A DNA stretch of 64,000 bases from an uncultured Clostridium sp. (lineage in GTDB: Bacteria; Bacillota; Clostridia; Oscillospirales; Acutalibacteraceae): positions 409-64,408 of the forward strand of contig CAYUXK010000004.1 of assembly GCA_964448835.1 (NCBI GenBank), read 5' to 3'. A model generated the notes under the pieces. It ran no database searches. It was not told the origin of the DNA and saw only the letters and a list, made by a program, of their open reading frames with translations. The position numbers and the translations under genes were made by a program. Shown here piece after piece: positions 51,852 through 60,774 of the stretch. Every line of letters begins with the position of its first letter. Position 1 is the first letter of the stretch.

Positions 51852-54290
51852 TTAAGGCTCATAACTGAAGGTGAAGCAATGTGAACGGATATCACAATTC
51901 ATTATCGAAGCGCGGAAAGCGTTGCCGCGCATGGTTTTGTTGCCGACGCGAATGGTATTCACATACCCGGGTGTTGACCCCGAGGGTGAAGCGTTGGTAA
52001 GTATTTCAAGCCATTCGGCAGGATTGTCGGAGAGCACTATGGAGCTGTCATACGCAAGAATTCTTCTCTTTAATTCATCGGCTGAAATTGATGGCGGCGT
52101 ATTAATGGAGACGACTTCGGGGCTGCTCACTCCTCCCGCCAGATACGGATATTTATTGCTTCCCCAAACACTTTCAGCGCTTGCCGTTTTGCCCGCGGCG
52201 CTCGCAAAGTAGCAGGTAAAAGCCGCAGAGCCGTTATAACAGACATATTTGGGGGAGGGGGTATCGCCGGGCAGGGTGATGCCCAGGTAGCTTAACGCGG
52301 CGTAATATACATTGGTGTCAAGATAATCATATGTAGAATTATAAGCATGACGGTCTGAGGCAACTTTAAAATTATAGTATTTTGCATATGTGTAGACCGC
52401 GCATATCTGCGCCTTGAGCGCCTCATAAGGAGCACTCGCGCCGATTTCGCGGACGGTAGTGCGGCAGAGGTACTCAACAAGCTCAATCGGAACGCCCCCG
52501 TATGTGACGGTTGCGGGCGGATTAGTATCTGTTTCAAGAGATGTGCCGGGATAATAGTGCTTAATAATCTGCTCGTAGGTCTTACCGCTGTTTGCCATCG
52601 CCTTTGCGCCCTCCTGGCTCATGCCGACGCCGTGACCGAAGCCGTAAGTTGTAAAGGTAAAGGTGCCGCTCACGGGCTTACCCGACGAGGTGGTGCCTTT
52701 TTCTGTGACTTTAACCGTGGTGGGCTTGGTAGTTGCCGGCTTAGTCGTGACCGGCTTTGCCGATGTCGGCTTCAAAATTAAGGGCCACTTTAACGAGGCT
52801 GCCGTTGTTGAAATCGCGGAGGTTACAGCCTGCTTCGTGGTGGTCGCCACCGATTTTTTGGTTGTTGCCGCTGATTTTGTGGTTGTTATTGACGATTTTG
52901 TGGTTGAGGCGGCAGTTTGCCGCGGCGTTACCGTGGTGTTAACGGGGGAGGATTCATTCTTCTGCGGGCCGACGCCCTGCATAACCGCGGTCATTACTGT
53001 ACGCGGCGCGGTGGTTATTTCAAGTGAGGACAGCGCCGAGCTTGCCGGGATTGCAATCATATCCGGGCTCTCAAGCATACTGCCGCCGTAGAGCGGGCTG
53101 TAATAATTAAGGTTCGCTTCCGCTTCAACCGCCAAATCGGCGGCCATGGGCGGCTCATTATATGAGGAATTCAGCGAATCCGCGGGAGAATCATCCGAAA
53201 GGTAATAGGCGATACCTACGCACGCGGCAATAGCGGCAAATAGGCACGCTATAATCACAACAAGACCGCGCACGGGTATGCGCTTAACGAGCGGAACGCT
53301 CACCTTTGGCGTGCTTTTCTCCGGGTTCACAAGCCCCTCGGGAGTGGCGGTGAATTCATCGAGCATATTGAGCAGCTTACCTATGGCGGCAAGCACAAGC
53401 GCCTTGGGGTCATCTCCCGGCTCGGAATAAACCTTAACCACACGGGCACGCATGGAGTTCGCGATGCTCACCACGGTGTAGGTGCTCGAGTCCTCTTCAT
53501 CGGTGCAGATATCCGAAACGGCGATGCCGACATCGGCGTGCGTATTCTCTTTTGCGGCTTTAGCAGAAACCGCTATGTAACTGTTGATATTCTCCTCGCC
53601 GTCAGGCGGCGGGGGCGAAACGTCAACAACAAAAACCTTATCAAAGCCATCCGAAAGGCGCAGACACTTTTGAACCAGCGCGGCGCAGCCGACATTTGAC
53701 AGGGCAATGTAAGAGCCGTTATCGGCAAGTGAGTCAACGGTTTGCTTAACCGACTGCTCAATAGCGGAGCGGGCAGTGATTCTTTTTGAAATCGCCGAAA
53801 GCTCGCCGAGGAAGGGCGACAGCTCACTCACGAGCATATAATCAAGCCTCGCGCAGTCGAGCGGCAGCATAATAATGCAGCGCGCGCCTTTTTTGAAAGC
53901 GAAGCCGGAATACAGACCGTCGGAGGAAATGAACACGCGCGCCTTTTCGGGCATAGCCACCTGCAAATCATATTCGCGCTTTGAGGGGAAGTCAATGCCC
54001 TCAACGGCATCGGCAACAACGCGGCTCTTGACCGCGCGAAGCGAGAGCGTTTTCATGAGCGTGAGCTTGAGTGCCGTGAATTGCCCGGGCTCGGCTGCGA
54101 TAATTGCTGTGTGAACGCTTTTAAGTTGGGAATTAAGGCATTCAATGAGCTCCTTCTGGCTGTTGAAGTCAGCGGAAAGCTGGGCATCCGAAAAATAATC
54201 AGATACCACATCACCTATTTGCTCCCTAGCCCTGCGGACTCCTGATGAGCCCTTGGTTGCAAGGGTCAATAAGCAAACCTTTGAAGCCAC
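51852..54290 (-). CDS. Fusion protein: degenerate CinA-like N-terminus, TM helix, Ser/Thr-rich stalk, circularly permuted SpoIID/LytB domain
   Basis: N-terminus aligns by eye with the neighbouring CinA (KKGARCIIMLP vs KKGGKCVIMLP); GFGHGVGMSQEGA...HYYPG precedes EYL..REI..ALKAQ..YTYA. Confidence 0.75.
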   Translation of the reverse strand: MASKVCLLTLATKGSSGVRRAREQIGDVVSDYFSDAQLSADFNSQKELIECLNSQLKSVHTAIIAAEPGQFTALKLTLMKTLSLRAVKSRVVADAVEGIDFPSKREYDLQVAMPEKARVFISSDGLYSGFAFKKGARCIIMLPLDCARLDYMLVSELSPFLGELSAISKRITARSAIEQSVKQTVDSLADNGSYIALSNVGCAALVQKCLRLSDGFDKVFVVDVSPPPPDGEENINSYIAVSAKAAKENTHADVGIAVSDICTDEEDSSTYTVVSIANSMRARVVKVYSEPGDDPKALVLAAIGKLLNMLDEFTATPEGLVNPEKSTPKVSVPLVKRIPVRGLVVIIACLFAAIAACVGIAYYLSDDSPADSLNSSYNEPPMAADLAVEAEANLNYYSPLYGGSMLESPDMIAIPASSALSSLEITTAPRTVMTAVMQGVGPQKNESSPVNTTVTPRQTAASTTKSSITTTKSAATTKKSVATTTKQAVTSAISTTAASLKWPLILKPTSAKPVTTKPATTKPTTVKVTEKGTTSSGKPVSGTFTFTTYGFGHGVGMSQEGAKAMANSGKTYEQIIKHYYPGTSLETDTNPPATVTYGGVPIELVEYLCRTTVREIGASAPYEALKAQICAVYTYAKYYNFKVASDRHAYNSTYDYLDTNVYYAALSYLGITLPGDTPSPKYVCYNGSAAFTCYFASAAGKTASAESVWGSNKYPYLAGGVSSPEVVSINTPPSISADELKRRILAYDSSIVLSDNPAEWLEILTNASPSGSTPGYVNTIRVGNKTMRGNAFRASIMNCDIRSHCFTFSYEP

Positions 54291-54310
54291 TAATTAATCA
54301 CCGCCTTGTA

Positions 54311-59621: not shown

Positions 59622-59640
59622 TTTTGAACTATCCTCTGTG

Positions 59641-60774
59641 TTATTTCGTTTTTCTTATTACTTTTTGCCCCTCTTGAATGCCAAGAACGAGCATATCGAT
59701 TTCGCGGGTGGTGGTGAAGCGCGAGATGCTCAGACGAAGCGGACTTTCAAGCCTCTCGTCATCAAGCCCCATACGCATAAGCACGCGGCTTTTCTTGCCC
59801 TTTGAGCACGCGGAACCTGCGGAAACATAAATGCCCCTTTCGGATAAAAAGTTCAGCATCGGTTCGCTTTTGATGCCGAGCACCGAAATATTGGTAATAT
59901 AGGGCAGTGCGTCGGGCGGCGAGTTAACGACAACGCCGTCAAGGCTGCGAAGACGCATCAGCATATAGTCGCGCAGCATTGCGGCTTGCCGCAGTTGCTC
60001 CGAGGGGTAACCCATTGCTCCCACGGCGGCGGCGAAGCCCGCGATTGCGGGCATGGCCTCGGTACCGGGGCGCAGCGTTTTCTCTTGTGAACCGCCGAAG
60101 GCTCGGGGAAGAATTTTTACATCCTTACGCACATAAAGCGCGCCGACACCCTTGGGGCCGTGGACTTTGTGTGAGCTCACGCTCATGAGGTCAACGCCGA
60201 GAGCGGAGGGCTTGCAGGGCAGCTTGCCGAATGCCTGCACCGCGTCGCAGTGAATGAGCGCGGGTGCTCGGGAAACGGAAACTGCACGCCGGGCGGCTTC
60301 AACGGGCTGAATCGAACCAACCTCGTTGTTAACAAGCATTATCGAAATAAGAACGGTATTTTGGTTAACCGCGCGGTAAAGCTCCTCGGGCGAAATCTTG
60401 CCATTGGAATCGACACGCAGGCGGATAACCTCAAAGCCTTCCGCCTCAAGTCGGTTGAGAGTCTCGTCAACGCTGGGATGCTCAATAGAGGTGGAAATAA
60501 TGCGCTTGCCGCGCCTTCGCCCCGCATAGGCGGCACCGAAAAGGGCAAGGTTATTGCTTTCAGTTCCGCCCGAGGTGAAGTAAACCTCACCATGCGAGCA
60601 GCCCAGAGCGCTTGCAACGGTTTCGCGGGAGGAATCAAGTAATTCCTCGGCGTTAACGCCCCTGCGGTGTAACGAGGAGGGGTTGCCCCAGGATTCGGTC
60701 AGGGCGTTATTAACGGCGGCAACAGCTTCGCGGCAGGGGACGGTGGTTGCGCTGTTATCAAAATACGCTTCCAT
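59641..60774 (-). CDS. iscS: Cysteine desulfurase (IscS/NifS family)
   Basis: YFDNSAT, GNPSSLH, SSHKVHGPKG, SAGSACS; adjacent to thiI. Confidence 0.92.
   Translation of the reverse strand: MEAYFDNSATTVPCREAVAAVNNALTESWGNPSSLHRRGVNAEELLDSSRETVASALGCSHGEVYFTSGGTESNNLALFGAAYAGRRRGKRIISTSIEHPSVDETLNRLEAEGFEVIRLRVDSNGKISPEELYRAVNQNTVLISIMLVNNEVGSIQPVEAARRAVSVSRAPALIHCDAVQAFGKLPCKPSALGVDLMSVSSHKVHGPKGVGALYVRKDVKILPRAFGGSQEKTLRPGTEAMPAIAGFAAAVGAMGYPSEQLRQAAMLRDYMLMRLRSLDGVVVNSPPDALPYITNISVLGIKSEPMLNFLSERGIYVSAGSACSKGKKSRVLMRMGLDDERLESPLRLSISRFTTTREIDMLVLGIQEGQKVIRKTK

Follow-up and report, generated by a model that had tools for sequence, protein, structure and literature searches.

The gene cluster described here lies in a 64,000-nucleotide stretch of DNA (the window) from an uncultured Clostridium sp. 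of the family Acutalibacteraceae, order Oscillospirales (GenBank assembly GCA_964448835.1, contig CAYUXK010000004.1, positions 409 to 64,408 of the forward strand). On the minus strand of the window, between positions 51852 and 60798, six open reading frames (ORFs) share one orientation in the order iscS-thiI-cinA-srtS-srtL-fusion. From 5′ to 3′ they are separated by 19, 35, 32, 24 and 20 bp. The cluster brings an intact cinA and two SrtB-type sortase genes together with a gene for a large fusion protein, in which a degenerate copy of CinA is joined through a transmembrane (TM) helix and a stalk to a SpoIID-type domain. The genes and their parts are as follows (aa, amino acids).

60855-60827, minus strand: sigma-A-type promoter TTGCAA-17-TATAAT, upstream of iscS (consensus scan and sequence).
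59641-60798, minus strand: class-V aminotransferase cysteine desulfurase, NifS/IscS-like (PF00266, E = 6e-67).
58446-59621, minus strand: thiI, tRNA uracil 4-sulfurtransferase without a rhodanese domain (TIGR00342).
57178-58410, minus strand: cinA, intact, with three domains (MoCF-like, KH and PncC; NF001813).
56171-57145, minus strand: srtS, 324-aa SrtB-type sortase (PF04203; TM helix aa 6-27; His156, Cys260, Arg270).
54311-56146, minus strand: srtL, 611-aa SrtB-type sortase (TM helix aa 301-323; His443, Cys543, Arg551).
55247-56146, minus strand: acidic, Pro-rich cytoplasmic N-region of srtL, 300 aa (aa 1-300).
51852-54290, minus strand: fusion protein, whole, 812 aa.
53286-54290, minus strand: cytoplasmic N-domain of the fusion protein, aa 1-335, a degenerate CinA copy lacking KH.
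53199-53267, minus strand: single TM helix of the fusion protein, aa 342-364, hydrophobic stretch GLVVIIACLFAAIAACVGIAYYL.
52686-53198, minus strand: extracellular low-complexity stalk of the fusion protein, aa 365-535.
51852-52685, minus strand: circularly permuted SpoIID/LytB domain of the fusion protein, aa 536-812, predicted catalytic Glu615.

A preliminary description of this locus had reported six co-oriented genes with short gaps, a single promoter upstream of iscS and no strong terminator between the genes, and all three points were confirmed. The gaps are 19-35 bp. The promoter hexamers recur in relatives 24-32 nucleotides (nt) upstream of iscS, reaching at least 10/12 in 35 of 41 loci compared with 4 of 41 shuffles. 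Upstream of srtS, srtL and the fusion gene, sigma-A-like scores are at the level of the shuffles; no internal sigma-A promoter was found in these scans, which used the sigma-A consensus. Inside the operon there are weak terminator-like matches and no convincing terminator. A second promoter-like site, TTGTCC-17-TATACT (60904-60932, minus strand), is found about 130 nt upstream of iscS, and several relatives have TTGTCC-18-TATAAT at a comparable distance. Since this site recurs, tandem iscS promoters are possible.

The N-domain of the fusion protein was proposed in the preliminary description to derive from CinA, and three kinds of comparison bear this out. Residues 100-190 match the neighboring CinA in a BLASTP search (E = 5e-9). 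A profile of 44 orthologous N-domains (A2) aligns to a CinA profile (A3) over 272 columns in hhalign (98.1% probability, E = 1e-13), in an alignment that spans the MoCF-like domain and runs into the PncC domain, skipping KH. The AF2 model of the domain has a predicted local distance difference test (pLDDT) score of 91.6, and its top PDB match in Foldseek is the full-length CinA of Thermus thermophilus, 4ct8 (E = 1e-11), followed by the single-domain CinA and PncC structures 3kbq and 5vu3. When the A2 profile was searched against PDB sequences, the top match was again a CinA, that of Streptococcus mutans, at a weak E = 0.012. The domain has no Pfam match and no NCBIfam CinA match, and both the GGLGPTxDD and AESCTGG motifs are replaced. 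The combination of CinA fold and profile homology with the loss of the motifs and the skipped KH domain identifies it as a degenerate, KH-less CinA copy, probably a pseudoenzyme for docking or ligand sensing. The further proposal that cinA was duplicated locally to give rise to it is one possibility; at an identity of about 19%, the copy could equally descend from a CinA-TM fusion.

This dead-CinA family is small: among 1.84 billion representatives it accounts for 190 clusters at 50% identity, with the domain N-terminal in every case. Protein lengths are bimodal, with one mode at about 350-500 aa and the other at about 700-860 aa. The position of the TM helix is conserved in 56 orthologues. 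Beyond it lies a stalk of about 170 aa, in which Ser and Thr account for 32% of aa 363-535. The fusion protein was considered as a possible sortase substrate and rejected: the extracellular stalk has no conserved motif resembling a sorting signal, and only a weak GGS.LD was seen in close relatives.

The C-terminal domain belongs to the SpoIID/LytB family (TIGR02669, 115.2 bits against a domain cut-off of 83.3). In an alignment with Clostridioides difficile SpoIID (5i1t), residues 72-264 of the query correspond to chain positions 64-267, and residues 12-55 to chain positions 283-326. This reversed segment order was seen in comparison with canonical SpoIID proteins, including the 342-aa SpoIID encoded on another contig of the same genome. 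GHG precedes EALKAQ in 60 of 60 scorable related loci, and the canonical order was found in none of them. Glu615 aligns with the Glu of the GEM motif of 5i1t (E101 in 5TXU numbering), which we take to be the catalytic residue of C. difficile SpoIID, and it is invariant in two alignments (A1 and A4). The AF2 model (pLDDT 91.0) has significant Foldseek matches only to SpoIID structures (5i1t and 4rwr). The permuted domain looks active as a glycan-cutting lytic transglycosylase.

A SpoIID homolog with its catalytic Glu intact raises the possibility of a sporulation-specific module, with a role in peptidoglycan remodeling at engulfment or in the assembly of cortex and coat, or in the anchoring of proteins at the spore surface. 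The organism encodes Spo0A, SpoIIP and a canonical SpoIID, SpoIIP is present in 14 of 16 other genomes bearing the module, and SrtC of Bacillus anthracis is reportedly needed for sporulation-related anchoring. Against this, the sole conserved promoter is of the sigma-A type and common to iscS-thiI-cinA, and the gaps of 19-35 bp are too short for separate promoters. The engulfment role is already filled by the canonical 342-aa SpoIID and SpoIIP encoded elsewhere, and the permuted domain scores far under the spore_II_D equivalog cut-off (TIGR02870, 98.6 bits against 234.75). A canonical SpoIID is found in 41 of 41 relatives, so that the phyletic comparison spans likely spore formers throughout. 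A sporulation-specific role is consequently not supported, and we regard it as unlikely. The link to sporulation or competence suggested in the preliminary description is likewise not borne out, given the vegetative-type promoter and the separate location of the canonical SpoIID, SpoIIP and Spo0A genes.

The arrangement itself is widely conserved. Of 24 genomes from the genus, about 21 have cinA-srtS-srtL-fusion in colinear order. A broader scan of one genome per species yielded 80 loci, all from uncultured Acutalibacteraceae, Oscillospiraceae or "Clostridia" metagenome-assembled genomes (MAGs) of ruminant, horse and human gut. The dead-CinA domain is present in 56 of these, and in 53 of the 56 it shares a single ORF with the permuted SpoIID domain; in the other three (L108, L109 and L111) the N-domain with its TM helix and the SpoIID domain are split into adjacent genes. 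A sortase gene lies directly upstream in all 54 evaluable dead-CinA loci, the remaining two ending at contig edges, and 43 of the dead-CinA loci have at least two sortases. The preliminary description had staked its proposal on synteny of the sortases and the fusion gene in relatives, and that synteny holds in all 54. In nearly all loci with enough flanking sequence, iscS-thiI-cinA is found upstream of the sortases, and in four loci (L101-L104) cinA has shrunk to a PncC-only gene. In several families of the order, the iscS-thiI pair itself belongs to what is conserved.

The remaining 24 loci provide an internal control. In these, permuted SpoIID paralogs stand alone (for example, L053, L063, L065, L066, L076-L079, L088 and L094). 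They are about 320-480 aa long, with an N-terminal hydrophobic anchor and a short Thr/Pro linker, and a sortase gene is found within 10 kb of none of them. No stand-alone permuted SpoIID paralog was found in the genome studied here.

The two sortases that accompany the fusion gene are related to each other (41% identity over 253 aa) and have a C-terminal tail in common. Both are above the cut-off of the Pfam Sortase domain and under the 153.75-bit cut-off of TIGR03064 (124.3 bits for srtS and 128.5 bits for srtL). Their best PDB matches are all SrtB enzymes (2oqw, 1rz2, 5jcv, 1ng5 and 4ux7), including those of B. anthracis, Listeria monocytogenes and Staphylococcus aureus. The catalytic motifs are IYGHT, TLSTC and RLVV in srtS and IYGHN, TLSTC and RLVV in srtL, so that both appear catalytically intact by their residues. 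The His, Cys and Arg are kept in 43 of 43 srtS orthologues and in 47 of 57 srtL-type orthologues, among which the Arg is replaced in nine and the Cys lost in one. One srtL subclade (L033, L035, L040, L047, L049 and L052) has TLQAC, and Met replaces the catalytic Arg. One locus (L050) has an extra, third sortase copy of 491 aa, which lacks the Cys and has an N-terminus similar to the dead CinA of the fusion protein.

Near the start of the long N-region of srtL, a stretch of about 50 aa is conserved (relatives read EAITEIDLxDFLEE…FEGFHEDIEKTEKSLE). Directly before the TM helix is a second conserved motif, (KGDS)xGE[IV]xRK[IL]VL, which is absent from srtS and common to a kinase-sortase fusion described below, to sortases of other families and to triple fusions. 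The long SrtB-like family to which srtL belongs comprises 1086 clusters at 90% identity (E <= 1e-10).

In other lineages, the parts of the cluster are found on single polypeptides. In other families of the order Oscillospirales, one locus (L113) has the arrangement iscS-thiI-[CinA+TM+SrtB, 745 aa]-srtB. Another (L114) has iscS-thiI-[PncC+TM+SrtB+Ig-like, 907 aa]-[SpoIID, canonical order, 725 aa]-tsaD. Simpler arrangements are iscS-thiI-cinA-srtB-murD (L116) and, without cinA, iscS-thiI-srtB-SpoIID (L115). A fifth locus (L117) has iscS-sortase-thiI followed by a triple fusion. When the CinA-SrtB fusion of L113 was used as a query against 5.8 billion proteins, CinA and Sortase Pfam domains occurred together in about 70 of the best-scoring 120 listed clusters, in proteins of 700-1200 aa with generic names. 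These include a CinA+Sortase+SpoIID protein (P0177) and a CinA+Sortase+3xPASTA protein (P0159), both by Pfam. For a further cluster of 263 member sequences (P0197), the Sortase model stays under threshold and SpoIID gives a weak match. Here the sortase part shows in the alignment with the L113 query, 97% of which is covered, and on inspection of the sequence. The triple fusion apparently occurs in an isolate of Anaeromassilibacillus, since a ThiI of Anaeromassilibacillus sp. SJQ-5 groups in one cluster with P0197.

The sortase domain of the triple fusions has IYGNN in place of IYGH and FLSVP or FLSTN in place of TLSTC, and is thus catalytically dead. Their SpoIID domain keeps the Glu and has the canonical segment order, and this lineage carries a separate sortase gene between iscS and thiI. 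Pairs of a live and a dead copy, of CinA in the present cluster and of the sortase in the triple-fusion lineage, would be the pattern expected of hetero-oligomeric partners. Given that CinA, sortase, and SpoIID or PASTA are fused elsewhere, the three parts very likely work together.

These fusions also bear on another account of the cluster, an incidental operon in which housekeeping genes, ordinary sortases and an unrelated vegetative wall hydrolase are neighbors without functional coupling. Every component has a well-known independent function, sortase substrates are encoded elsewhere in the genome, and the cluster can be incomplete: one genome (G033) has iscS-thiI-cinA-srtB without SpoIID, and another (G032) has iscS-thiI-srtB-SpoIID without cinA. 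Such an account does not readily accommodate several distinct architectures that join CinA, sortase, and SpoIID or PASTA, nor a dead CinA that is retained under selection as the cytoplasmic domain of a SpoIID protein, always N-terminal across its 190 clusters. It is further at odds with the adjacency of a sortase to the fused SpoIID (54/54) and not to the stand-alone paralogs (0/24). We therefore consider a purely incidental grouping improbable.

The genome as a whole encodes three sortase-domain genes only. The third sortase and four candidate substrates, all outside the operon, are as follows (contig numbers are our own).

Contig C10 (genome G000), 14398-16341, minus strand: third sortase, 647 aa, outside the window.
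Contig C13, 24371-28072, minus strand: candidate sortase substrate.
Contig C21, 6784-7197, plus strand: candidate sortase substrate.
Contig C48, 14455-15003, minus strand: candidate sortase substrate.
Contig C48, 1424-2140, minus strand: candidate sortase substrate.

The third sortase has a Cys-rich, zinc-ribbon-like N-terminus and a partial protein-kinase domain (PF00069), together with a TM helix and an SrtB-type domain in which TLSTC is intact. Homologues of this kinase-sortase fusion are present in the protein database. Each of the four candidate substrates carries [PV][EQ]TG-SA followed by a hydrophobic stretch and a basic, Lys-rich tail. The signal is IPQTG, IVQTG, KPETG or APETG, each with SA after it. 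One of the four is a 1233-aa repeat protein resembling an adhesin, and one is a 238-aa protein with a C2H2 zinc-finger Pfam match. In two relatives, the only ones with a substrate beside the module, the gene that directly follows the fusion gene in the same orientation codes for about 875 aa with an IPDTG sorting signal (L080:12702-15338 and L096:11961-14579, both on the plus strand). From these signals and residues, srtS and srtL are probably true protein-sorting enzymes whose substrates are encoded outside the operon.

A different use of the sortase fold would be to act on the stem peptides of peptidoglycan, denuding the glycan in the manner of SpoIIP before its cleavage by the SpoIID domain. 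SpoIID-type enzymes need glycan free of stem peptides, as in the SpoIID/SpoIIP pair of Bacillus subtilis, and such a scheme would fit both an operon without a substrate gene and the tight pairing or fusion of sortase and SpoIID. The nearest solved relatives, though, are protein-sorting SrtB enzymes, and the TLSTC/His/Arg set is intact. Moreover, the four sorting-signal proteins of this genome have no other sortase to handle them, and the triple fusions keep SpoIID while their sortase domain is dead. Of the alternatives weighed here, action on stem peptides appears to us the least probable.

We favor instead, as reasonably probable, a conserved operon of vegetative type that joins iscS-thiI-cinA to an envelope module of sortases and fusion protein in Acutalibacteraceae and related Oscillospirales. 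The operon looks like an undescribed cell-wall machine rather than a chance neighborhood, and the sortases, the fusion protein and the CinA parts would most likely form one membrane-spanning complex. In such a complex, the sortases would attach [PV][EQ]TG-SA proteins to lipid II or nascent peptidoglycan, and the tethered SpoIID domain could cut or trim the glycan strands there. As for the dead CinA and the N-terminal tails of the sortases, they may link the complex to CinA in the cytoplasm or sense the nucleotide ligands of CinA, which is presumably a nucleotide-metabolizing enzyme (nicotinamide mononucleotide deamidase / adenosine diphosphate-ribose-type pyrophosphatase). A more tentative extension, which we hold to be possible and rather doubtful, is that CinA or its dead-copy sensor controls or feeds extracellular anchoring and glycan cleavage in an undescribed trans-envelope machine.

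Several considerations weigh against a joint envelope machine. We know of no cell-wall function of CinA. As iscS-thiI-cinA are housekeeping genes, their linkage to the module could be historical. The loss of the srtL Arg in some relatives, together with the dead sortase of the triple fusions, suggests that the sortase fold may be partly a scaffold. Most loci have no sortase substrate nearby, and the six genes are read as one transcription unit from their spacing and the promoter scans.

Sortases, SpoIID and CinA have each been studied closely, but we know of no described linkage between them; full-text literature searches returned no paper linking the three. The cellular role of CinA, discovered as a competence- or damage-inducible, membrane-associated protein, has to our knowledge never been settled. 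If the proposed coupling is real, it would provide a new link from cytoplasmic nicotinamide adenine dinucleotide or nucleotide status, or from a nucleotide-linked wall precursor, to cell-wall assembly, and a first physiological role for membrane-associated CinA. The conserved operon and the varied fusions in abundant gut and rumen Clostridia make joint action at the membrane testable. Three groupings also emerge from the analysis: a large subfamily of long SrtB-like sortases that lacks annotation, a lineage of circularly permuted SpoIID domains and a family of dead-CinA pseudoenzymes. These bear on how Oscillospirales build their surface, with implications for host colonization and for the annotation of thousands of MAGs.

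The operon is flanked by a divergent alpha-galactosidase gene and by a convergent secA, and a small separate ORF lies downstream of the fusion gene.

51613-51753, minus strand: 46-aa ORF MEDLQPVIDVLKQAITFIKDSGLLEKAIAAIKEYLPKIIELVSKLG, downstream of the fusion gene and separate from the operon.
51577-51550, minus strand: strong intrinsic terminator with a 12-bp stem and T-run, after the 46-aa ORF; predicted end of transcription on this strand.

The 46-aa ORF has its own promoter-like site, TTGACT-17-TATATT (51815-51787), the ribosome-binding site AAAGGAGA and the strong terminator. Nothing in the genome is significantly similar to it, and it is not conserved behind the fusion gene in the 80 related loci. 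A kinship with the helical regions of the PETG proteins of contig C48 was considered and dropped, as no significant similarity was found. The convergent secA (48725-51481, plus strand) lies about 70 bp past the shared terminator region. Its closeness to genes of Sec-dependent sortase substrates is probably a coincidence. An Rfam scan of 51000-62000 gave one sub-threshold small RNA match only, on the terminator.

The likely start of iscS is the ATG at 60774, which has GGAGG just upstream in our reading of the sequence. The product is below every NCBIfam equivalog cut-off (at best 331 against 530.75 for TIGR03402 and 271 against 304 for NF002806); with its strong PF00266 match, it is accordingly filed as a class-V cysteine desulfurase and not as IscS proper. 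ThiI (TIGR00342, 364.6 bits, cut-off 264.5) has the domains ThiI_fer, THUMP and ThiI. CinA (NF001813, 460.3 bits against a cut-off of 379) matches PF00994, PF18146 and PF02464, and both of its motifs, GGLGPTADD and AESCTGG, are present.

The adjacent desulfurase and rhodanese-less ThiI resemble nifZ-thiI of B. subtilis and, more generally, the NifZ/IscS-ThiI pair of Firmicutes, which serves tRNA s4U8 formation. Here, in contrast, the pair heads an operon that runs into cinA and envelope genes, and one lineage has a sortase gene between iscS and thiI. The N-domain of the fusion protein shares the MoCF-like and PncC-like fold of CinA (T. thermophilus 4CT8 and S. mutans 6MR3) and is homologous to it at the profile level, with an intact cinA three genes upstream. 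It differs in lacking KH, the motifs and a Pfam match and in being tethered to the membrane.

The SpoIID domain has the fold of the SpoIID proteins of B. subtilis, C. difficile (5I1T/5TXU) and B. anthracis (4RWR), falls in the same TIGR02669 family and conserves the catalytic Glu. Unlike them, it is permuted, with the GHGVGMSQ...HYYPGT segment first, and a long Thr/Ser stalk connects it to the TM helix and, on the cytoplasmic side, to the dead CinA. It is encoded in a vegetative-type operon with sortases, while the canonical SpoIID gene lies elsewhere in the genome. A functional parallel is the SpoIID-SpoIIM-SpoIIP engulfment machinery, in which a SpoIID-type lytic transglycosylase anchored in the membrane is likewise paired with another enzyme that acts on the wall. 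In the present cluster, the partner is a sortase-fold transpeptidase rather than the SpoIIP amidase/endopeptidase, there is no SpoIIM-like scaffold, the promoter is not visibly of a sporulation type, and the canonical SpoIID and SpoIIP are encoded apart from the operon.

The substrates of C. difficile SrtB carry (S/P)PxTG motifs (PMC5569036), which resemble the [PV][EQ]TG-SA signals of this genome. With the class B sortases of that species and of S. aureus, B. anthracis and L. monocytogenes, srtS and srtL have in common the TLSTC Cys, the His, the Arg and an N-terminal membrane anchor. They differ in that the operon has no substrate gene and no iron-uptake genes, and in that both carry a conserved C-terminal tail (P.AW...NPY...W), to which srtL adds its 300-aa acidic cytoplasmic N-region and conserved juxtamembrane motif. 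A third paralog in the genome bears a kinase-like domain, and relatives carry the same sortase in fusions with CinA, PASTA or SpoIID.

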